Shown here piece by piece: positions 6,293 through 43,771 of a stretch of DNA of 64,000 nt (its first letter is position 1; the number at the start of each line of letters is the position of its first letter). The DNA comes from a virus. The DNA lies in the IMG/VR virus record IMGVR_UViG_3300037089_000505, positions 79,948-143,947 of that record. One strand, written 5' to 3'. The notes under the pieces were generated by a model. It was given only the letters and a program-made list of their open reading frames with translations, was not told the origin of the DNA and did not search any database. Both the position numbers and the translations under genes were made by a program.

Positions 6293-7633
6293 ATGGACGA
6301 ACTTAAACAACTGAACAAACTGGTCACCGAACTCAACACCACGAACTCCACCACAGACAAAACTGAGATCCTGGCCAAGTATCCGGAATGCAAAAAACTC
6401 CTGAGCTGGACCTATGATCCCTTCATCCAGTTCTACGTCAGCTCGGACAACATTCTCAAGATGGAAAGCCAGATCAAACCCAACGGAGTTCATACCGACA
6501 TCTTCGGCCTCATGGCTGAACTCAACTCCAGAAAGTATACTGGCCACGATGCCATCGCCTACATCCTTCAGTTCATTTCCGAAAACAAGATTTACCGGGA
6601 TCTCATCCTCCGCATACTCGATCGGAACCTCAAGACTCGGGCCGATGCCAAACTCATCAACAAAGTTTGGCCGGGAACAGTCCCTTCTTTCGAAGTGGCT
6701 CTGGCCCACAAATACAACGACTTCAAACAGAAGGTGGATTTCACCAAAGACACTTGGTTCGCTTCCAGAAAACTGGACGGAGTCCGGGTCATCACGGTCA
6801 TCTCCTCAAACGGCGATATCAAATTTCTTTCCCGCAAAGGAAAAGAATTCACCACTCTGGACAATGTCCGCAAAGAGCTCCAGAAGAAACTCGAACCATA
6901 TCGCAATGACTTCGATTTCTTCAAGGGCGGCTTGGTTCTCGACGGAGAAATGTGCATCGTCAACCAGAACGGCGATGAAAACTTCACGGACATGATCAAG
7001 CTCATCCGCCGGAAGGACTACACGGTCGAACATCCCAAGTATAAGATCTTCGATATGATGCCTTTGGTAATCTTCGAAGAGAAAGAACCACCCAAAGGAA
7101 TTCGCAATATCAGGCTGACTCATCGAATCAATCTCATCAACCTCTTCAAAGATCAGGGCATCTTCAATGGGGGCATCTTGGACCCGGTGGAGCAGAGGAA
7201 GATCGGAACCGAGAAAGACCTCACTGACTTCATGGCTGAAGCCAATTCCAAGAATTGGGAAGGACTCATCCTCCGGAAGGATGTCCCCTACAAGGCCGGC
7301 CGCTCTTCGGATATGCTCAAGGTCAAGGAAATGCAGGACGATGAATTCGTGGTCCAGGACGTGGAGATGGGGCCCATCCGGATCATCAAGGGCGGCAAGG
7401 AAGTCACCGAGACAATGCTCTCCGCCATCAAGATCCCTTACAAAGGTAACGTGGTCTCGGTCGGATCTGGCTTCTCCATCCAGCAGAGACAGGAATTCTA
7501 CAAGGATCCTTCTAAGATCCTGGGCAAAACGGTCACCATCAAATACTTCGAGGAAACTATCAATGAGCAGGGGCTCTACTCCCTCCGGTTTCCGGTCCTC
7601 AAGACCATCTACGATGGAGACCGGGATGTTTAA
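6293..7633 (+). CDS. lig: ATP-dependent DNA ligase
   Basis: KLDGVR motif I, LDGE, EGLILR, LKVK and VGSGFS...LRFP OB fold. Confidence 0.95.
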   Translation: MDELKQLNKLVTELNTTNSTTDKTEILAKYPECKKLLSWTYDPFIQFYVSSDNILKMESQIKPNGVHTDIFGLMAELNSRKYTGHDAIAYILQFISENKIYRDLILRILDRNLKTRADAKLINKVWPGTVPSFEVALAHKYNDFKQKVDFTKDTWFASRKLDGVRVITVISSNGDIKFLSRKGKEFTTLDNVRKELQKKLEPYRNDFDFFKGGLVLDGEMCIVNQNGDENFTDMIKLIRRKDYTVEHPKYKIFDMMPLVIFEEKEPPKGIRNIRLTHRINLINLFKDQGIFNGGILDPVEQRKIGTEKDLTDFMAEANSKNWEGLILRKDVPYKAGRSSDMLKVKEMQDDEFVVQDVEMGPIRIIKGGKEVTETMLSAIKIPYKGNVVSVGSGFSIQQRQEFYKDPSKILGKTVTIKYFEETINEQGLYSLRFPVLKTIYDGDRDV

Positions 7634-10472: not shown

Positions 10473-11019
10473 TTTATTATAAAGGTAACGGAGGAAGCAA
10501 TGGTCAAAGATTTTTTCTGGAACCTGTTTTGGAAGCCGGTAAAGTCAAATCTGATACTGGCAGCTCTTTTCCTTGTAGAGATTTTCTGGTTTCTTGTCCT
10601 GGAATGGGAGCGATGGATCCACATCGCATTTCTCATCGGAACTGGCATTCTTTCAATCTACCTCAACGATGGCCGTTACTTCGTGGCGGCTGCCGGTGGG
10701 GCCACAGTCTACAGTCTCCTTTGGTTCAAGCTGGCCGTCTCGAAACGGTGGTAAACTAGAGGCGGCAGAGATCTGGGCCGGTGGAAACACCGGCCTTCTT
10801 TTTACGAAAGGAAGCAGAGATGGCTACCTTCTTACGTTTCATGGTTTTTATTGTCATGGGCGCTGGGGGTCTTTTCCTGGGCATCTTTTTAGTATATCTT
10901 GCCTGGACGTTTCTACCCTTGATACTTTCTATTTTCGCAACAGTCATAGCATTTGTGCTTTGGTGCTGGGGAGTAGTTGAAGTCGGGGCATGGGTCATAA
11001 TTTCGGCATAGGAGAGACA

Positions 11020-11790
11020 ATGACTGATTCACTTGGCGATAGGATGAAAGGCAATTACGAAAACCGTTCTCGGTTTTACCTGACTCGAAGAACGCCTGTC
11101 ATCATTCGTGTAGATGGCCGAGCCTTTCACACTCTGACTCGCAACTGCGAAAAGCCCTTTGATGAGAGTTTGAGCAAATGCATGATCGAGACTACGATCG
11201 GACTCTGTGAAGAGATTCAAGGCGCAAAATGTGCCTACGTCCAAAGCGACGAGATCTCAATTCTGATTACCGATTATGATCGTCTTAGCTCTGGCGCCTG
11301 GTTCGACTACAACCTCCAGAAGATGGCTTCGGTCTCAGCTTCCATCGCCACTCTAGCTTTCGGTCTTTCTATAAGAAAAATCGCTGGCGATTGGAACGAT
11401 TGGAAAAGTCAAGCCAAAGCTACATTCGACTCTCGCGTTTTCAATATTCCGAGAGAAGAGGTGACCAACTATTTCGTTTGGAGACAGCAAGACTGGACTC
11501 GCAACAGCCTTGAAATGCTGGCTCGAGCCCACTATTCACACAAACAGCTGGACAAAAAGAATGGTGCAGCAATGCACGAGATGCTCCACGAGAGGGGCGT
11601 CAATTGGGCGGATCTCCCTGACAAGTGGAAGAATGGAAGTCTCATTGTCAAAGAGTCTATTCTCATAGACCTGAATCAGGACATGGTAGCTTCAAACATG
11701 CGGTCTGAGTGGAAGCCGAAAGATCCATGTCCCATTTTCAAGAACGACCGAGACGCTATCGAGAAGCTTCTCATACCTGAGGAGGTATAA
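11020..11790 (+). CDS. Thg1-like tRNA(His) guanylyltransferase / 3'-5' polymerase
   Basis: RVDGRAFH, YVQSDEIS, FDSRVF and YFVWRQQD..RNS. Confidence 0.93.
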   Translation: MTDSLGDRMKGNYENRSRFYLTRRTPVIIRVDGRAFHTLTRNCEKPFDESLSKCMIETTIGLCEEIQGAKCAYVQSDEISILITDYDRLSSGAWFDYNLQKMASVSASIATLAFGLSIRKIAGDWNDWKSQAKATFDSRVFNIPREEVTNYFVWRQQDWTRNSLEMLARAHYSHKQLDKKNGAAMHEMLHERGVNWADLPDKWKNGSLIVKESILIDLNQDMVASNMRSEWKPKDPCPIFKNDRDAIEKLLIPEEV

Positions 11791-13277: not shown

Positions 13278-14465
13278 ATGCCAATAACGCAGTCTCTGCT
13301 TAATACCGACCTTTATAAGCTGTCAATGGCTCAAGCGGCTCTTCATCAATTTCCTGGAGCAGAGGTTGAATATGCTTTTAAGTGTCGTAATAAAGCGCAT
13401 TGGACTCCAGAAATTGTAGCTGCTATCAACAAAGAAATAGACGATCTTTGCTCCCTACGATTTACACAAGAGGAGCTTGAATTTCTTTCCCGTATTCGGT
13501 ATCTCAAAAGAGACTTCCTTGATTTTTTGAGTCTCACACAATTGAATCGAAAGCATATCAAAGCATGGCTCGATGAAAATCAAGAACTTCAAATTCGTAT
13601 TAAAGGTAATTGGTTTTTGACTATCTTATTTGAAGTCCCCGTCCTTGCTATCGTCAATGAAATCTACAATCAATTCACCTATCCCAACGTTGGCCCATTT
13701 GTAGGTGGACGTGGTCGCCTTGAAGAAAAAGCAAAGCTGCTCAAAGCCTATCTTTCAAATGGAAATCTACTCTACTTTAGTGACTTTGGAACACGGCGAC
13801 GATACTCCTTCCATTGGCAAAAGGAAGTAGTCAAATTCTTGAAAGACGAATTTGGGCCGTCTGGAGTTTTCACTGGAACTTCAAACGTTCTTCTGGCAAA
13901 GACTTTCGGTCTCCGGCCTATTGGCACCATGGCCCACGAATGGATCCAGTGCGGTCAGGCAACTGGAGTCAGACTCATTGACTCGCAAAAAAGAATGCTT
14001 CAGGCCTGGGTAGACGAATACCGTGGCGACTTGGGCTATGCACTTTCAGATACACTCGGCACTGATGCTTTCGTCAAAGACTTCGACCAGTACTTTGCCA
14101 AGCTCTACGACGGAGTGAGACAAGACTCTGGTGATCCAATCGCTTGGGGGCACAGGATCATTCAGCACTACAAAAAATTGGGCGTTGACCCCAAGACAAA
14201 GTCGCTCATCTTTTCAGATTCATTGGATTTTCCAAAGGCCATCAATATCAATGAGACTTTCAAGAATCAAGCCAAAGTTTCATTCGGTATCGGCACTTAT
14301 CTGACCAATGATATTGAAGGAATTGAGCCACTCAACGTAGTAATCAAAGTGGTCAGGTGCAATGGCCAGCCGGTTGCAAAACTTTCTGACTCACCGGGCA
14401 AAGGCATGTGTGAGGATCAGGATCACGTCACATACCTCAAGAAGGTTTTTGGCATCAAGGAGTAA
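13278..14465 (+). CDS. pncB: nicotinate phosphoribosyltransferase
   Basis: SLLNTDLYKLSM, DFGTRRRYS, GTMAHEW, RQDSGDP and KLSDSPGK. Confidence 0.95.
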   Translation: MPITQSLLNTDLYKLSMAQAALHQFPGAEVEYAFKCRNKAHWTPEIVAAINKEIDDLCSLRFTQEELEFLSRIRYLKRDFLDFLSLTQLNRKHIKAWLDENQELQIRIKGNWFLTILFEVPVLAIVNEIYNQFTYPNVGPFVGGRGRLEEKAKLLKAYLSNGNLLYFSDFGTRRRYSFHWQKEVVKFLKDEFGPSGVFTGTSNVLLAKTFGLRPIGTMAHEWIQCGQATGVRLIDSQKRMLQAWVDEYRGDLGYALSDTLGTDAFVKDFDQYFAKLYDGVRQDSGDPIAWGHRIIQHYKKLGVDPKTKSLIFSDSLDFPKAININETFKNQAKVSFGIGTYLTNDIEGIEPLNVVIKVVRCNGQPVAKLSDSPGKGMCEDQDHVTYLKKVFGIKE

Positions 14466-17012: not shown

Positions 17013-17031
17013 TTCGAAGTAGCTATATAAT
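17013..17031 (+). promoter_or_regulatory. example of promoter class A, TTCGAN-N7-TANNNT
   Basis: TTCGAA-gtagcta-TATAAT, 6 nt before the ATG; same spacing at 12 other sites. Confidence 0.75.
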
Positions 17032-17037
17032 TACTCT

Positions 17038-17616
17038 ATGGAACTCTTGAAATTCATCGACACCAATTCTGATTGGAAAGAAAAAATCCAAGCCGAACCT
17101 TTTTGTGTCAAGGTTGAGGAAGACGAACACTACGTCCTTCTGAAATACGATCAGATTCATTCTGACTTCAATATTCCCATGGTTCGGGAATGTCGGGGTA
17201 TCATCCTTACCAAAGACACTCATGAAGTGGTTTGCCATCCCTTCGACAAATTCGGCAACTATGGTGAGGGATACTGCCCAGAGATAGACTGGGCTACTGC
17301 TCGAGTTCAGTCCAAAATCGATGGCTGCTGTGATGCCGATGTTAAACTCATTACCAAAACCGGTGAAAAGGCTATAAAAGAAATCGTTGAGGGCGAAGAA
17401 GTCCTCACTTTCAATTTCGAAAAAGACCAACCAGAATTTAATGTTGTAAAGGCAACTTCCAAAAAATTCAACAACAACGATTGGTATGAAATAGAACTAG
17501 AAAATGACCAGAAAATAAAACTGACTGGTAATCATCGTGTTTGGGTAGAAAATCTGAAATGTTATCGCCAAGTAAAAGATCTGAAAGGCGATGAGGAGGA
17601 GGTTAAATTTATATGA
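17038..17616 (+). CDS. T4 Rnl1-like RNA ligase N-extein (96 aa) fused to split-intein N-fragment (96 aa, from 17326)
   Basis: RECRGIIL and PFDKFGNYGE, then KIDG|CCDAD (intein block A) and KLTGNHRVW (block B TxxH); ends without a C-terminal splice junction. Confidence 0.9.
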   Translation: MELLKFIDTNSDWKEKIQAEPFCVKVEEDEHYVLLKYDQIHSDFNIPMVRECRGIILTKDTHEVVCHPFDKFGNYGEGYCPEIDWATARVQSKIDGCCDADVKLITKTGEKAIKEIVEGEEVLTFNFEKDQPEFNVVKATSKKFNNNDWYEIELENDQKIKLTGNHRVWVENLKCYRQVKDLKGDEEEVKFI

Positions 17617-17996
17617 TTTTAAAAATAATTCTAACAGTAGTAATGTTAGTAGTTGCATTAGTAGTTGGATTTTTACTACCCAATAATATAAGCTTTTTAG
17701 GCTCGCTTATTTTATTGGTAGTATTCTATGTAGTCTATTTTGTTTTTATTAAGCCAGTTATAAAAATGATCGACAAAGAGCTTCATTCATTCGAGCGTAT
17801 AAGCAAAAAAATTATTGCAAAATATGGTACCCCAGATGAGCGAGGAATTTCTATTTTTCCAGAAGAAAAAATGAGAGACGTGGGAGTATTAGAAGAGATT
17901 ACGTGGACATGGCATAAAAAAGAGGGCGACTGGAAAGTCGTTTTTTATAGAGATAAAGATGGATGGGCAGATTATGATGATGCTGCAGAAAGTTAA
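17613..17996 (+). CDS. membrane protein (passenger inside the fractured ligase locus)
   Basis: two N-terminal hydrophobic helices; ATGA overlap with the upstream ORF. Confidence 0.65.
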   Translation: MILKIILTVVMLVVALVVGFLLPNNISFLGSLILLVVFYVVYFVFIKPVIKMIDKELHSFERISKKIIAKYGTPDERGISIFPEEKMRDVGVLEEITWTWHKKEGDWKVVFYRDKDGWADYDDAAES

Positions 17997-18037
17997 GCGT
18001 CCCATCAACTTTTCATTGAATTTGACAAGATAACTCA

Positions 18038-19060
18038 ATGAGAAATATAAAAGAAAGTGTTTGTGTTTGCGGACAAAAAATTACAAACATATCAGCGATA
18101 AATCATAAAAGACATTGCCCGGTCTTTTTAAAATACCGTGATAAGTGTCTCACTAAAGAATTTATTCAAAAAGAATATATTGAAAAGGGTCGGTCTTTAG
18201 AAGAAATACACAGAGAGCTTTCGATCCCAAGAAAATATATTGAAAGCAAAGTTTTAGAGTTTGGTTTCCAATTAAGAAACATAAAACAATCTAAAGCAAC
18301 TCAATACACAAAGAACAAAACGATAGCGACTACTATTGATAGATACAGCGATGTAAATGTTTTGGGCAAGAATTCGCCAATTTACAATGAAAGAAATAAG
18401 ACAGTAAAGCAAAGGTATGGCGTAAATAACGTATTTCAGCTGGCTGCCGTGAAAGAACAAATCACCAATAGTCATCTTGAAAAATACGGCAAGAAAAGAA
18501 TTACTAATGGACAAAAAATATCAACAACGAGAAAAGAAAAATTTAAAGCAGGCGAATATAAATATTTCAGTAGAGCAATGTCAGAGACAGCCAAAAGCAC
18601 TTATAATAAATTAAGCGAAAAAGAAAAAGTAGACAAAATGGTTCATATGAGAAAGTTTATAGACGTGAATTCTTTTATGTCAAGACCAGAAGAGAAAGTG
18701 GCGTTGATATTAACAGAGCTTAAGATTGAATTTCAACATACACTTTTCATAGGTCCATTTTCTTACGATTTTCATATCAAACATACGCCCGTAGTAATTG
18801 AAGTTCAAGGAGATTATTGGCACGCTTCCCCAGACAGATATGAAGCTAAAGATTTACTTAGCAGACCGGGTAATAAGCTTGTTGAAGCTCAAGAGATATG
18901 GGTCAAAGATGCGGCTAAGAGGGCATACATCGAAAAATATGGATACAAAGTTTTTTACATTTGGGAACACGAACTCAAAGATTTGAAGAGTATCGAAGGT
19001 AGGTTAATATCTCTGTATGAAGAGCATAAAAATAAAAAGCATCAAGAAGATTACAAATAA
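18038..19060 (+). CDS. free-standing Vsr/DUF559-like homing endonuclease
   Basis: SRPE...YDF...VIEVQGDYWH...KD..K...GYKVFYIWE; KYG/RYGV repeats; sits between split-intein halves. Confidence 0.85.
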   Translation: MRNIKESVCVCGQKITNISAINHKRHCPVFLKYRDKCLTKEFIQKEYIEKGRSLEEIHRELSIPRKYIESKVLEFGFQLRNIKQSKATQYTKNKTIATTIDRYSDVNVLGKNSPIYNERNKTVKQRYGVNNVFQLAAVKEQITNSHLEKYGKKRITNGQKISTTRKEKFKAGEYKYFSRAMSETAKSTYNKLSEKEKVDKMVHMRKFIDVNSFMSRPEEKVALILTELKIEFQHTLFIGPFSYDFHIKHTPVVIEVQGDYWHASPDRYEAKDLLSRPGNKLVEAQEIWVKDAAKRAYIEKYGYKVFYIWEHELKDLKSIEGRLISLYEEHKNKKHQEDYK

Positions 19061-19910
19061 CTCGAAGAGATATGATGTCCAAACTGACAACGGCAATTTC
19101 TTCGCGAATAATATCCTCGTCCACAACTCTCTCATCAAGGTTTGGTACCATAACTTCTGGCACGTCTCTTCCAACGGTATGATCGACGCTGGGTCTTGCG
19201 ATCTCTCTCTTCCGTTCGGAAGCTACAAGACGCTCGGCGATCTTTTCAGCCAGGCCTTTTTCTTCAAACACAAGAAGAGCTTGAATGATCTCAACAAGAA
19301 CTACACCTATATGTTCGAGCTCATCAGCCCCTACAATCGGGTAGTCATTCCTTACACCGAGATTGACATTTACCATATCGGCACCAGGGAAACGAAGACT
19401 GGAATAGAGCTTATCATTGATATCGGAATTCAGAGACCGAAAGAATTCAATCTTCATACTCTGGATGATGTAATCGCCGCGGCAAAAGTCCTCCCCTTCA
19501 ATGATGAAGGCTACGTGGTGGTTGACGGAAAATGGAATAGAGCGAAGATCAAGTCGCCAGCTTATGTCGCCGTCCATCATCTCAGGGGCGAAGGCAATCT
19601 TTCCTACAAGCGAGTCCTGGTCTTGATCATGTCCAATGAACATACTGAGTTTCTGAACTACTTCCCTGAGTATGTTGAAGTATTCGGTCAGGTAGAAAAG
19701 AAGTATAAAGACTACGTCGAGAAACTCCTTCAGTCTGCAACTGACGCAATTCAGTATAAGAGCTTGCCTCGAAAAGAATATGCCATGTGGGCAACCAAAC
19801 AGGTTGAGCCGGCCTTTCTTTTCCAACTCCTTGATGGAAGGATCAAGACGGCTGAGGAATACTTGGAACAGGTCGGGCCCGAAAAGGTTGCCAAGAAGTT
19901 GGGATACTAA
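19017..19910 (+). CDS. split-intein C-fragment (37 aa, 19017-19127) fused to RNA ligase C-extein (260 aa)
   Basis: basic MKSIKIKSIKK, YDVQT.NGNFFANNILVHN|S; then TYMFELISPYNRVVIPY, EGYVVVD and KIKSPAY ligase motifs. Confidence 0.9.
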   Translation: MKSIKIKSIKKITNNSKRYDVQTDNGNFFANNILVHNSLIKVWYHNFWHVSSNGMIDAGSCDLSLPFGSYKTLGDLFSQAFFFKHKKSLNDLNKNYTYMFELISPYNRVVIPYTEIDIYHIGTRETKTGIELIIDIGIQRPKEFNLHTLDDVIAAAKVLPFNDEGYVVVDGKWNRAKIKSPAYVAVHHLRGEGNLSYKRVLVLIMSNEHTEFLNYFPEYVEVFGQVEKKYKDYVEKLLQSATDAIQYKSLPRKEYAMWATKQVEPAFLFQLLDGRIKTAEEYLEQVGPEKVAKKLGY

Positions 19911-20159
19911 TGCTGAGCAAATTTCATACATTCATCTTGAAGCACTTTTTTAAAATATTAGTGCTGATGATGTCTATCTTTGGTATTGCAATTGGTCTTG
20001 GGTTGAACTACTTTTTCGGCCTCTCGCTTTTCGTATGTATTTGTTCAGGTGTAGTTCTCGGACCACACTTGACTTTCGTGATTTTATTTGCTATCTTTCT
20101 TTTGCCATATACTCAGGGTAAACTTAAACCTAACGCATAATTGAAGGAGAGGTAAACAA

Positions 20160-21636: not shown

Positions 21637-22377
21637 CATATATTAAACACATGGCTATTACATTAGGCATCATTGCTATACTCTATTTAGCAGGTGGCAT
21701 CACTTTCGGTATGATCTTTGATCGTGAAGCCGAAAACTTTTGCGACCTCTTCGAAGGCACTGCTGGTCGTTTCATGAATTGGATTTTCTGGGCTCATAAC
21801 GGTGGCACCTATTTGGTCTTCATCGGACTTGCTACTATGATATGGCCCATCTCGGCTATACTCACAGCTATTTGTTATTTCAGAGCATAGGAGAAAACAA
21901 TGATTGCTATCGTTATTTTGGCTACAATCATCTATCTCTTTATCGGCTTTGTTGGAGTCATCTACTTGAACGAGGAAGAAATTCTTGACGGTGTCATCGA
22001 CGATGAAGACAGCGTCTTTTCTTGGATTTTGAGCTGGCTCATCTATACGACTCCGATCATCAAGTGGGCTTTCTATTTTTTACTTGCTTTGATCTGGCCT
22101 ATCGGAGCTGTGGTGGCGGCAATCATTTATCTGTCATACATCGTCTAAGGAGATCAAATGGACGACCTAATCAAAGCTCTTCAAATCATGCGGAAGTATT
22201 GTAAAAACGAATACGCTCCGTGTTCTTGTGAACACGATATTCTCTACGTCAATTGCGTGGATCCCGCTAACGTTTCTGAGGAAGACATAAAGGCACTCGA
22301 TGAATTGGGGTTCAGTCCGAATTCTTCTTGGCCAGCATTCTATTCTTTCAGATTCGGATCCTGCTAAGGAAAAACAT

Positions 22378-23682
22378 ATGGAACTTAAAGGAAAATACGC
22401 TAACGCAATCGTCTACAACGACTTAGTCGAGGCTACCTGTATCTCGCAGATTCTTGGCCTGTTAAACCATCCTCTGTCTGAAAACTCCAACCCTCGCTTC
22501 ATGCCAGATTTGCACGCGGGAAAAGGCTGTGTCATCGGCTATACTGCTATTCTTCCGCCTGATGGAAAGGTAGTTCCTAACCTCATCGGTGTAGATAAGG
22601 GATGTGGCGTCTATACCATTTGCCTTGGATTCTTGGCCGATATCGGCGAAAAGTTTGACAAGCTTGACAGGTTCATTCGCAACGAAATTCCTTCCGGGTT
22701 CAAGAGCAACGAACGAACCAATCAGGATCTGGAGGAAATTTTCCGAAAGGGACTTGCGAGCAATGGTCTTTATGCAAACATCCGTGATTTCGATGTCGCC
22801 CTTAAGGAAGTGTGCAAGCGTCAGGATCAGAGCTATGATGCGGTAATGAGACAGATTGGAACTCTCGGCGGTGGAAATCACTTCATTGAAGTTGGACTCG
22901 ACGAAGAGAATCGTCTTTGGCTGACGATCCACTCTGGCTCGAGACACTTCGGAAACATCAGCTGTCTCTTCCATCAGAAAAAGGCACAGAACAAATACCT
23001 CGGTCTCGATGATGAAACCTTCCGAGCAAAGGTGGAGGAAATCAAACGGACCAAGCACGGTAAAGGTATTGAAGCAGCAATTCAGAGACTCCGTTCAGAA
23101 GCCCGGAAGGGTGGCAAGAAACCCAACGGTCTTGAGTGGTTAGAGGGCAAAGATCGCGAAACTTACATTCACGACTTGAAAGTTGCTCAGTTGTATGCAA
23201 AACTCAATCGCCATACGATGGCCTACGCTATTGTGAACGGCTTCTACAAGCTGGACATTTTCAGCCTGAAGAGAATTGAGTCTGTCCACAACTACATCAA
23301 CTTCGAAGATAACATCGTTCGAAAGGGCGCGATCTCTGCTCATATCGGAGAAGAGGTTGTCATTCCCTTCAACATGAGAGACGGTTTGATCATTGGAATT
23401 GGAAAAGGAAATCCTGACTGGAACTTTTCTGCACCGCACGGGTCTGGAAGGAAGATGTCTCGTTCGGCCGCAAAAGGCCTGGACCTTGCTCATTTCGAGA
23501 AAGTTATGAAGGATGCGGGTATCTGGTCTACTTCAATAGGTAAAGACACACTCGATGAATCGCCCATGGCCTACAAGAACACTGAAGACATTGTGGCTCT
23601 TTTAGGGCCGACTGTAGAAATTAAGCATCGCGTGAAGCCAATCTACAATTTCAAGTCTGGCAAAGAAGAGGAAAGAGAATAA
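22378..23682 (+). CDS. rtcB: RtcB family RNA-splicing ligase
   Basis: MPDLHAGKG, GVDKGCG, GTLGGGNHFIE, HSGSR, HNY..VRKGA, SAPHGSGR and DESPMAYK. Confidence 0.95.
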   Translation: MELKGKYANAIVYNDLVEATCISQILGLLNHPLSENSNPRFMPDLHAGKGCVIGYTAILPPDGKVVPNLIGVDKGCGVYTICLGFLADIGEKFDKLDRFIRNEIPSGFKSNERTNQDLEEIFRKGLASNGLYANIRDFDVALKEVCKRQDQSYDAVMRQIGTLGGGNHFIEVGLDEENRLWLTIHSGSRHFGNISCLFHQKKAQNKYLGLDDETFRAKVEEIKRTKHGKGIEAAIQRLRSEARKGGKKPNGLEWLEGKDRETYIHDLKVAQLYAKLNRHTMAYAIVNGFYKLDIFSLKRIESVHNYINFEDNIVRKGAISAHIGEEVVIPFNMRDGLIIGIGKGNPDWNFSAPHGSGRKMSRSAAKGLDLAHFEKVMKDAGIWSTSIGKDTLDESPMAYKNTEDIVALLGPTVEIKHRVKPIYNFKSGKEEERE

Positions 23683-41946: not shown

Positions 41947-43143
41947 ATGAAAAGATTCAAGAATCTGTTCTTGTTTTTGGCTGTTCTTGTATTAGCGTCA
42001 GCTAGTGCTTGGGCGATGCCAGCGGCAGGTAAGACTCTTACCATCGGATTGGTACTGGTCGGACCTTACAATGATCTAGGATGGAGTCAGGCAAATTATG
42101 ATGGCGTTCAATACGTCGTCAAGAATGTTCCTGGAGTTCAGTTCATTTATATTGACAAGGCTAATCCAGCAGACAGGCCGGGAACGACAGTGTCTCAACT
42201 AGCTGAAAGTTTGGTTGCAAAGGGCGCGAAGCTAATTATCTTCAGCTCAGATGATATGGGTGATGAGGCAGTTAAGTTTGCTACAGCGCATCCTGATATT
42301 TTCGTTGTTATGACTTCTGGTAGCCAGGTATGGAATGCTGGAAAAACCTATCAGAACCTACCGAACATGATTAACATCATGGGTCGTATGGAATTTGGCA
42401 AGATGATCGCAGGAGTTGCCGCCGCCATGACGACAAAGACTGGTAAAATTGGTTACCTCGGACCACTTATCAATGATGAAACGAGGCGATTGTGTTCTTC
42501 AGTATATCTTGGAGCCAAGTACGCTTGGACAAATTACTTGAAGAAAGATGCTGCTAAGCTTCAATTCAAGGTAACTTGGATTGGATTCTGGTTTAACATT
42601 CCGGGTATCACTTCAGATCCCTCACAAGTGGCCGATGCATTTTTCAATGATGGTTACGACGTGGTAGTTTCTGGTATTGATACTAGCGAAGTTGTTACAG
42701 AGGCAGCAAAGTTTACGGCTCAAGGCAAGAAAGTTTTCGCAATTCCTTACGATTACTCAAGCGCCTTCGCCGCTTCACCTGAGGTTAATTTGGGCGTTCC
42801 TTATTTTAATTGGGGTCCTGCTTATGTAGTAGCTGCAAAAGCTGCAATGGGTGGTTCTTGGGTTTCCCACTTTGAGTGGAACTCCCCCGACTGGAAGAAT
42901 GTTAACAACCCTGATACATCAGCGGTTGGTTTCAACAAGGGCAAGGCACTTTCACCTAAGGCTTCGGCTGCAGTTGATAAGTTTCTTTCCGAACTTGCAT
43001 CAGGACTTAACCTATGGAAAGGTCCTATGAAGCTTCAAGATGGTAAGACCTACTTGGTCGATGACCAGAAGGCAACAGATCAGCAGATCTGGTATTTGCC
43101 TCAACTCTTGGAAAATATGCAAGGACAGAGCGTTTCGAAGTAG
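41947..43143 (+). CDS. BMP-family ABC transporter substrate-binding protein
   Basis: signal peptide; GPYNDLGWSQA, AG.AAAMTTKTGKIGYLG, WIGFWF and FNWGPAY. Confidence 0.88.
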   Translation: MKRFKNLFLFLAVLVLASASAWAMPAAGKTLTIGLVLVGPYNDLGWSQANYDGVQYVVKNVPGVQFIYIDKANPADRPGTTVSQLAESLVAKGAKLIIFSSDDMGDEAVKFATAHPDIFVVMTSGSQVWNAGKTYQNLPNMINIMGRMEFGKMIAGVAAAMTTKTGKIGYLGPLINDETRRLCSSVYLGAKYAWTNYLKKDAAKLQFKVTWIGFWFNIPGITSDPSQVADAFFNDGYDVVVSGIDTSEVVTEAAKFTAQGKKVFAIPYDYSSAFAASPEVNLGVPYFNWGPAYVVAAKAAMGGSWVSHFEWNSPDWKNVNNPDTSAVGFNKGKALSPKASAAVDKFLSELASGLNLWKGPMKLQDGKTYLVDDQKATDQQIWYLPQLLENMQGQSVSK

Positions 43144-43153
43144 TATTACAATT

Positions 43154-43179
43154 AGAGGGCAAGGCTTCTTGCCCTCTTT
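43154..43179 (+). terminator. hairpin, probable terminator overlapping a promoter start
   Basis: AGAGGGCAAG-GCTT-CTTGCCCTCT-TT. Confidence 0.65.
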
Positions 43180-43182
43180 CAC

Positions 43183-43256
43183 TCGCCCTTGGCCAAGTGG
43201 ATTAAGGCAGAAGACTTTGGATCTTCTATGCGCAGGTTCGAATCCTGCAGGGCGAA
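43183..43256 (+). tRNA. tRNA-Gln(TTG)
   Basis: TCGCCCT/AGGGCGA; GAAGA-CT TTG GA-TCTTC. Confidence 0.92.
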
Positions 43257-43265
43257 TATTTACAC

Positions 43266-43340
43266 TGTCCCGTAGCTTAGCTGGCCGAAAGCGTCTGTCT
43301 CTGGAACAGAAGAGCCTCCGTTCAAATCGGAGCGGGACAA
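43266..43340 (+). tRNA. tRNA-Gln(CTG)
   Basis: TGTCCCG/CGGGACA; TCTGT-CT CTG GA-ACAGA. Confidence 0.92.
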
Positions 43341-43354
43341 AAAGAAAGGGAAAC

Positions 43355-43771
43355 ATGGAACTAATAATTTCAATCGGTCTCCCCGGCTCTGGCAAATCTA
43401 CTTACTATCGCACAGCGCTTGCGAAAAGTCACACACAAATCTCCAAGGATCTAATGAGCGGCTCTCCAACTAGAAAAAATCAGATTCAGATTGACATGAT
43501 TACTCAATCTCTAACTAAAGGATTGAATGCAGTAATCGACAATACTAGTGTCACAGCTGAAGTTCGGAGGCCTTTAATTGAGCTCGGCCACAAACTTGGC
43601 GCAAAGGTAATTGCGTATTACTTTCCGACTTCAGTCAAAGATTGTATTGCTCGCAATGCTCAGCGAACGGGTAGGGCTAAAGTACCAAATGTGGCTATCT
43701 ACACTATGGCAAAGAAGCTTCAAGGGCCAACAAAAGCTGAAGGCTTTGACGACATAATTACGATCAATTGA
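43355..43771 (+). CDS. P-loop polynucleotide kinase-like (AAA_33) protein
   Basis: GLPGSGKST, ISKD, VIDNT....R, C.ARN..R...VP and P...EGFD. Confidence 0.85.
   Translation: MELIISIGLPGSGKSTYYRTALAKSHTQISKDLMSGSPTRKNQIQIDMITQSLTKGLNAVIDNTSVTAEVRRPLIELGHKLGAKVIAYYFPTSVKDCIARNAQRTGRAKVPNVAIYTMAKKLQGPTKAEGFDDIITIN

Follow-up and report, generated by a model that had tools for sequence, protein, structure and literature searches.

A fractured Rnl1-type RNA ligase gene in a phage genome fragment, very probably divided by a mobile split-intein and endonuclease cassette in motif I

We describe a fractured gene for an Rnl1-type RNA ligase (rnlA) in a window of 64,000 nucleotides, i.e., the whole stretch of DNA that was analysed, corresponding to positions 79,948 to 143,947 of the record IMGVR_UViG_3300037089_000505 in IMG/VR, which belongs to a large phage that is uncultured. 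The ligase is encoded in two separate halves, and this arrangement very probably represents a mobile cassette, consisting of a split intein and a free-standing homing endonuclease of the EDxHD type, which is inserted inside the catalytic motif I of the enzyme. The locus comprises four open reading frames (ORFs) on the same strand, 17038-17616 (192 amino acids (aa), the N-half), 17613-17996 (127 aa), 18038-19060 (340 aa) and 19017-19910 (297 aa, the C-half), with each ligase half having its own start and stop codon and approximately 1.4 kb, holding two complete genes, separating the halves. The cut falls three residues past the catalytic lysine, and thus the enzyme would be inoperative until the protein has been spliced.

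Ligase halves and intein fragments

The first 96 residues of the N-half are ligase sequence and end in VQSKIDG at the junction K93-I-D-G96/C97 (here and below the slash marks a splice junction), as an earlier note on this DNA had read from the ORF, together with the subsequent N-terminal intein fragment (IntN) of 96 aa, its TGNH block B and its acidic tail, all of which we confirmed. This ligase part is matched by PF09511 (RNA_lig_T4_1) on residues 51-97 and by the RNA ligase family phrog_562 at positions 23-108. From S38 onwards, the C-half aligns with positions 107-360 of the same phrog_562 (E 1.9e-31) and with residues 153-328 of T4 Rnl1 (2C5U, E 1e-6), and the alignment to T4 Rnl1 places motif III (FEL, E101), motif IV (E164-G-Y-V) and motif V (K177-I-K179) in the C-extein, so that the profiles and the 2C5U alignment also bear out the description of this ORF as a basic C-terminal intein fragment (IntC) of 37 aa that ends in VHN/S and is followed by ligase motifs. 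Recalculation of the predicted spliced product gave 356 aa and 41.4 kDa, in agreement with the 356-aa, ~41 kDa Rnl1-like ligase that had been proposed. In T4 RNA ligase 1, motif I reads K99-E-D-G-S. With this enzyme (RnlA, gp63; 2C5U, 5TT6) the spliced window ligase would share the K-x-D-G-S of motif I, the order and spacing of motifs III, IV and V, the matches to PF09511, phrog_562 and TIGR02308, and a phage context of RNA repair and transfer RNA (tRNA) genes, whereas T4 rnlA is one uninterrupted gene and the window ligase is made up of two.

Searching the C-half against 1.84 billion representative proteins resulted in 4836 matches, the best 150 of which are for the most part uninterrupted ligases, 40-48% identical and 350-380 aa long, and in these the alignment begins at C-half residue 35-38 and at residue ~95-100 of the homologue. 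The N-extein, in turn, shares 41-55% identity with residues 1-~100 of Rnl1 homologues that lack an interruption, and the two exteins abut on such proteins at residues ~99/100 with no gap or overlap and with no residues missing or extra. For P0094, the N-half aligned to residues 2-101 and the C-extein begins at residue 100; P0100 reads D-I-D-W-D-S-A-R-V-Q-E-K-I-D-G-S-L-I-K-V-W where the window has E-I-D-W-A-T-A-R-V-Q-S-K-I-D-G/S-L-I-K-V-W. Both halves also map head to tail onto the intact RNA ligase of Pseudomonas phage phiPMW, found among the GenBank phages. Uninterrupted homologues, whose existence was to be checked according to the earlier note, are thus numerous and collinear with both exteins. 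A megablast of the 5-kb locus against the GenBank phages gave no match, and the relatives there, which were found at the protein level alone, are all uninterrupted ligases.

In a search with intein hidden Markov models, which had been suggested as a further check, both fragments scored over the respective cut-off, IntN with TIGR01445 (intein_Nterm, 27.9 bits, cut-off 24.5) and IntC with TIGR01443 (intein_Cterm, 16.0 bits, cut-off 15.6), and PF14890 was matched by IntN (E 4e-8) as well as, at positions 122-155, by IntC. IntN contains block B as LTGNH and the tail GDEEEVKFI and has a net charge of -5; IntC is Lys-rich, ends in LVHN37 followed by Ser38 and has a net charge of +5. For comparison, 47 further N-halves with 32-91% identity were aligned with that of the window (alignment A1), and 11 further C-halves with 35-46% identity with its C-half (alignment A2); these come from other metagenomes, and their numbers are lower bounds. 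The junction K-x-D-G/C is repeated in the 47 further N-halves and LVHN/S in all 11 further C-halves, a recurrence of both junctions which, judged from these alignments, is far beyond chance. Among the 48 N-halves, the invariant intein residues are C97, W149, T163 and H166, with G164 and N165 present in at least 90%, and the invariant ligase residues are R53, F72, N74, E77, K93, D95 and G96. The 12 C-halves likewise have in common the intein residues D20, L34, V35, H36, N37 and S38 and the ligase residues E101, E164, G165, K177 and K179. The conserved intein residues are those on which all four splicing steps of a class-1 intein depend. The combination of Cys1 and Ser+1 is also found in gp41-1, NrdJ-1 and IMPDH-1.

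Modelling of the N-half with AlphaFold2 reached a predicted local distance difference test (pLDDT) of 88.7, and the IntN part of the model found the NrdJ-1 split intein (8UBS) as its top match in the PDB, followed by the BIL2 domain, gp41-1 (6QAZ) and Npu DnaE-N (4LX3, TM 0.79, root-mean-square deviation 2.1 Å); a HINT fold is therefore predicted for IntN, the N-fragment having been modelled alone. Sequence comparison with solved inteins likewise placed NrdJ-1 closest to both fragments, weakly in either case (E 0.03 for IntN, 2.8e-4 for IntC). The ratio of non-synonymous to synonymous substitutions (dN/dS) of IntN is ~0.06, a rough value like that of the endonuclease discussed below, as dS is near saturation for both, while in the exteins and IntC the synonymous sites are saturated and allow no estimate. 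Scanning the whole record (144 kb) revealed a single intein, i.e., one cognate pair. By every defining sequence feature, constant across the homologues, the assignment as a naturally split class-1 intein is supported. Moreover, its fragments of 96 and 37 aa, Cys1 and Ser+1, the opposite charges and the distance from NrdJ-1 make it a candidate orthogonal split intein, which might become a useful pair for protein engineering, with dozens of natural variants available for comparison.

Most N-halves open the intein with Cys-Cys, the intein lies inside the catalytic motif, where activity is strictly tied to joining, and the two genes between the halves might have expression controls of their own. 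All this would also suit fragments that associate while splicing is conditional or absent, acting as a regulated switch (e.g., through Cys1-Cys2 redox) or as a non-covalent dimerisation module and in this way gating the ligase in time. We consider such a role quite improbable, because Asn37, His36 and Ser+1, which are needed solely for the covalent steps, are invariant, whereas the second Cys is variable (Val, Ile or Leu in several homologues), and no sensor domain is present.

Table 1 Features of the fractured rnlA locus (window positions).
Feature	Position	Strand	Evidence and remarks
Putative promoter-like element CTATATAAT	17023..17031	+	TATAAT at 17026-17031, 6 nt before N-half ATG
N-extein, Rnl1 residues 1-96, to motif I K93-I-D-G96	17038..17325	+	PF09511, phrog_562
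IntN, 96 aa + stop codon; Cys1 = C97, block B T163-G-N-H166, acidic tail	17326..17616	+	TIGR01445
Passenger ORF, 127 aa, two predicted transmembrane helices, orphan	17613..17996	+	Hydropathy
RNA hairpin, 10-bp outer stem, weak candidate for a translational brake	18010..18044	+	Fold energy
Free-standing homing endonuclease, 340 aa, EDxHD/Vsr-like	18038..19060	+	Profile matches, model, conserved residues
IntC, 37 aa: Lys-rich start, block F Asp20, block G His36-Asn37	19017..19127	+	TIGR01443, PF14890
C-extein, Ser+1 (S38) + Rnl1 residues 97-356 + stop codon	19128..19910	+	phrog_562, 2C5U

Spread and mobility of the split alleles

The window is derived from a metagenome assembly, and in L014 one gene caller chose an antisense ORF over the C-half, so it may be asked whether a contiguous intein-containing gene was broken by chimeric assembly, sequencing errors or gene calling. 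The probability of this is negligible. The endonuclease of the window locus was recovered by several projects and assemblers on a total of 21 contigs of up to 310 kb. Six independent contigs were compared, and wherever they cover the locus they match it with 100% identity, three of the six spanning all 2873 nt. An assembly artefact, named by the earlier note among the findings that would refute the split gene, is therefore excluded. The same three-part layout is moreover kept in divergent relatives, since the order N-half, endonuclease, C-half is found in L001, L003, L005, L020 and other loci (with the endonuclease on the opposite strand in L003 and L020), and the halves each possess a start and a stop codon with two full genes lying between them. 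Additionally, dozens of proteins of ~195 aa with the same N-half build, from which the 47 aligned N-halves were taken, are present in a collection of 5.8 billion proteins.

When 137 C-exteins were placed in a tree, eight state changes were needed to account for the 12 split alleles, at least three of them forced by well-supported branches, and several split alleles are sisters of intein-free alleles. Between the window and L005, conservation is higher in the intein parts than in the exteins (IntN 82% versus N-extein 66%; IntC 78% versus C-extein 67% identity). Both the scattered alleles and the higher conservation of the intein parts would fit a mobile cassette; the scatter could also result from repeated loss.

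The same site in Rnl1 is used by contiguous inteins with a LAGLIDADG domain, in the metagenomic proteins P0095, P0137, P0193 and P0201 (~750-800 aa), and by a mini-intein in P0226, where an AAA_33 kinase, an HD phosphohydrolase and Rnl1 are fused in one protein of 838 aa. The contiguous inteins have the same insertion point (K-x-D-G/C ... VHN/S-L) as the split intein of the window, and their IntC-equivalent ends are 37-52% identical to its IntC, but they are part of one polypeptide, would splice in cis and contain an embedded endonuclease of a different family. As their N-parts are so distant from the window IntN (~23-27% identity where alignable), they may represent a separate intein lineage using the same site. 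A single site with intein-free alleles, full inteins, a mini-intein and split inteins thus offers a natural series for the origin and spread of split inteins among large phages. The P0226 fusion itself would constitute a three-part RNA-repair enzyme.

Related cassettes are not restricted to Rnl1. The window IntN is 38-50% identical to N-fragments on a different ligase family (PF21189 OB domain with PF09414; PHA02142), and it is similarly close to the N-fragment on P0063, a ligase whose N-terminus is HNH-like and whose junction reads K-L-D-G-E-N/C. Junctions in the PF21189-PF09414 ligases are K-x-D-G/C, K-I-D-G-S-S/C and K-T-D-E-P-R/C, the latter being that of the largest group (among the P0059-P0091 proteins) and lying ~20 residues ahead of motif I. 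Two loci of this second ligase family, L021 and L023, show the same fractured layout with Cys as the +1 residue, and compared to the window their IntC is 68-74% and their endonuclease (DUF7487/EDxHD) 27-29% identical. At least one switch of the host ligase family is required by the IntN tree, which has too few columns to resolve more. One might speculate that these split inteins and EDxHD endonucleases form a cassette family specialised in RNA ligases, which moved between non-orthologous families at or near motif I and in which the gap between IntN and endonuclease is a cargo slot with orphan genes carried along during homing; this wider proposal is tentative, and we regard it as rather doubtful.

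The endonuclease gene and the variable slot

The intervening gene had been noted as Vsr-like, and both its conserved residues and its fold match to I-Bth0305I identify the product of 18038-19060 as EDxHD/Vsr-like. It shows weak matches, under the Pfam and NCBI cut-offs, to TIGR00632 (vsr, E 1e-5), PF18741, PF04480 and PF24308, including DUF559 and DUF7487, and it matches phrog_3339, annotated as 'homing endonuclease', with an E value of 1.8e-12. The protein consists of an N-terminal stretch containing Cys residues, helical modules of a DNA-binding type (DUF7487) and a C-terminal nuclease domain (residues ~215-335), and the final 44 nt of its gene overlap the start of the C-half gene. Invariant in eight aligned endonucleases are D244, E255, D259, W261, H262, D291 and E310. 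The model has a pLDDT of 71.5 overall and 80-90 in the C-terminal domain; its best match in the PDB is the catalytic domain of I-Bth0305I (3R3P, TM 0.84, 24% identity), followed by Vsr (1CW0). All homologues of the endonuclease are located within fractured Rnl1 loci, and its dN/dS of ~0.07-0.09 suggests that the gene has been maintained. The EDxHD homing endonucleases, a family first noticed in fractured genes, have I-Bth0305I as their prototype, and their motif was defined in the same work (PMC3239194). The window enzyme shares with I-Bth0305I the predicted C-terminal nuclease fold, the composite acidic/His motif and an N-terminal DNA-binding region of multiple modules. I-Bth0305I is encoded by a group I intron that interrupts a phage recA gene, whereas the gene of the putative window enzyme is free-standing between the halves of a split intein.

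The AUG of the endonuclease gene (18038-18040) has no Shine-Dalgarno sequence and is contained in the 3' arm of an RNA hairpin with -9 kcal/mol and a z of -2.8 for the 46-nt core, while the 86-nt region is not significant against shuffles. Owing to the position of the AUG inside this arm, the hairpin is a candidate translational brake of the endonuclease, if a weak one. It resembles the translational hairpins described at the endonuclease starts of fractured genes by Dassa et al. 2009 (PMC2677866).

In the relative L007 (Logan SRR31228043), the endonuclease gene (L007:5566-6504) keeps the conserved nuclease motifs although its frame contains seven TAG codons, the only internal stops in it. A single in-frame TAG occurs in each of three other genes of this locus and none in the ligase halves, and 0 of 15 checked called genes end in TAG. 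Decay of the L007 endonuclease was considered and rejected in favour of TAG recoding, as all seven stops are TAG; this phage probably reads TAG as a sense codon, its endonuclease being unusually TAG-rich.

Between IntN and the endonuclease lies the passenger ORF, whose ATG overlaps the IntN stop codon (ATGA) and whose product would, according to hydropathy, consist of two hydrophobic helices followed by a soluble tail of ~80 aa. No family was found for it in Pfam, PHROGs or NCBIfam, it retrieved only itself among 5.8 billion proteins and nothing usable in the ESM Atlas, and it does not resemble the ORFs that occupy this slot in relatives. In L026, whose endonuclease is 81% identical, the slot holds an unrelated ORF of 122 aa with a hydrophobic start (L026:176-544), in L005 another unrelated ORF of 146 aa (L005:6599-7039), and in L025 no ORF (L025:863-910), whereas the 5' leader of the endonuclease gene that follows the slot is conserved in the window, L026, L005 and L025. 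The differing content next to a conserved leader suggests that the gap is a variable slot within a unit that homing would copy whole. Two of the unrelated slot ORFs have hydrophobic N-termini, and at L021 an ORF of 88 aa (L021:2111-2377) is situated between endonuclease and C-half.

Genomic context, proposed mechanism and known systems

The fractured ligase gene is surrounded by genes for RNA and DNA end repair distributed over ~37 kb, i.e., an ATP-dependent DNA ligase (6293-7633), Thg1 (10990-11790), NAPRTase (13278-14465), RtcB (22300-23682), in which the whole-record scan found no intein match, and a P-loop AAA_33 kinase (within 43040-43771). The latter ORF overlaps two tRNA-Gln genes, placing the true kinase start after 43340. 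A class II-type ribonucleotide reductase, 16 tRNA genes and a transfer-messenger RNA (tmRNA) are also present in the window. L005 has the syntenic order DNA ligase, Thg1, NAPRTase, fractured Rnl1 and RtcB, and the next gene after the C-half in L020 encodes a kinase. In T4, phage Rnl1 and polynucleotide kinase repair tRNAs cut by host anticodon nucleases. A role of phage Rnl1 and kinase in tRNA repair is further supported by a survey of jumbo phages (PMC7824862). The gene content around the fractured ligase would suit such a role.

Several observations weigh against reading the locus as a functional fractured rnlA gene. The T4 RnlA equivalog TIGR02308 matches the C-half, itself only part of the protein, with 49 bits compared to a cut-off of 242, for which reason the ligase is filed as Rnl1-like and not as an orthologue of T4 RnlA; the window ligase and its nearest relatives have K-F-G-N versus K-F-F-N in the family consensus, K-F-G-N being present in some uninterrupted homologues too; the N-half gene has no Shine-Dalgarno sequence; the hairpin stem, kept in four related loci, has zero pairs with compensatory changes; and the record is only ~63% complete, so that a second, intact rnlA might be located elsewhere in the genome. 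Regarding the C-terminal helical domain of Rnl1 (PF20819), no match was obtained in the window C-half at E <= 1, the domain is present in the C-halves of L003 and L020, and the 2C5U alignment reaches residue 328.

The incomplete record, the RtcB gene 2.4 kb downstream and, read in the standard code, the seven in-frame stops of the L007 endonuclease could also point to a dead relic, where the cassette destroyed rnlA, the ORFs are decaying without splicing and the phage depends on another ligase such as RtcB. This is very improbable in our view: both frames are open, the catalytic residues for splicing and ligation never vary across dozens of homologues, some with as little as 32-35% identity, both IntN and the endonuclease have a dN/dS far below 1, and the L007 stops, all being TAG, argue for recoding rather than decay. 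A functional cassette in motif I is the preferred reading.

For such a cassette, the following mechanism is proposed. Two precursors would be produced, one of 22.5 kDa (ligase residues 1-96 with the acidic IntN) and one of 34.4 kDa (the basic IntC with ligase residues 97-356), whose intein fragments would associate, helped by their opposite charge, and fold into a single HINT domain. Class-1 trans-splicing would then begin with an acyl shift at Cys1, followed by transfer to Ser+1; Asn37 would cyclise with the help of His36, an O-to-N shift would complete the reaction, and the new peptide bond between Gly96 and Ser would recreate K-I-D-G-S-L-I-K in a 356-aa, 41.4-kDa ligase. Since one precursor contributes the adenylylated K93 and the other motifs III, IV and V, ligase activity is expected only once the halves have been joined. 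The ligase would most likely reseal broken tRNAs in concert with the neighbouring RNA-repair genes and the many phage tRNA genes. When relatives co-infect, their intein-free rnlA alleles are probably cut by the endonuclease, and repair would then copy the entire insert, including anything between IntN and the endonuclease. From sequence we infer the association of the halves, splicing, both enzymatic activities and homing, while the role in tRNA repair in this phage is proposed by analogy.

DNA ligases and Rnl1-type RNA ligases belong to the same enzyme superfamily. Fractured phage genes with split inteins and a Vsr-like endonuclease were, as the earlier note had stated, already known: Dassa et al. 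2009 describe this layout and name as hosts gp41 (gp41-1 to -9), NrdJ-1/2, NrdA, IMPDH-1, DnaE, a DNA ligase and a terminase (TerL), and the polarity of an acidic IntN and a basic IntC is reported there for NrdJ-1, IMPDH-1 and NrdA-2 (PMC2677866). The window locus has in common with these fractured genes two ORFs at one locus with the halves of a class-1 intein, a free-standing Vsr-like endonuclease between them, a phage source, insertion in a conserved active-site motif and a hairpin at the endonuclease start. It differs in its host, an Rnl1-type RNA ligase not being among those named there, and in the extra variable passenger gene between IntN and endonuclease. Inteins are furthermore known in RtcB-type RNA ligases of phages or archaea (NF038162; actinobacteriophage RtcB, bioRxiv 10.1101/2025.01.02.630785), likewise RNA-repair ligases, but RtcB is unrelated in fold and chemistry, and the inteins are not called split there.

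A full-text search, with most subscription journals outside its reach, found no description of a split intein in Rnl1. Within the literature searched, Rnl1 is thus a new host for the known fractured-gene layout of Dassa et al. 2009. The suggestion that an RNA-ligase host may be new holds in this narrower form. The arrangement itself is common in public metagenomes, and both the inteins of RtcB and, since 2009, the split intein in a DNA ligase were already known. Our finding extends the fractured layout from enzymes of DNA replication and nucleotide metabolism to an ATP-dependent RNA-repair ligase.

Concerning the expression of the N-half, a TATAAT-like box is located 6-10 nt 5' of its ATG in four out of six related loci (including L005, L025 and L007). 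The promoter-like 9-mer has just two occurrences in the window and is not significant alone, and a scan for terminators and promoters between the genes yielded nothing convincing. Due to the box close to the ATG and the missing Shine-Dalgarno sequence, the N-half mRNA may be leaderless or nearly so.

Finally, fractured ligases represent an annotation pitfall and are easily overlooked in the RNA-repair inventories of phage genomes, because in gene calls the halves appear as hypothetical proteins or the antisense ORF is reported instead. At L014, the public gene call annotated this antisense ORF in place of the C-half and thereby hid the ligase, and in the window an antisense ORF of 318 aa (18975-19931, - strand) shadows the entire C-half gene.

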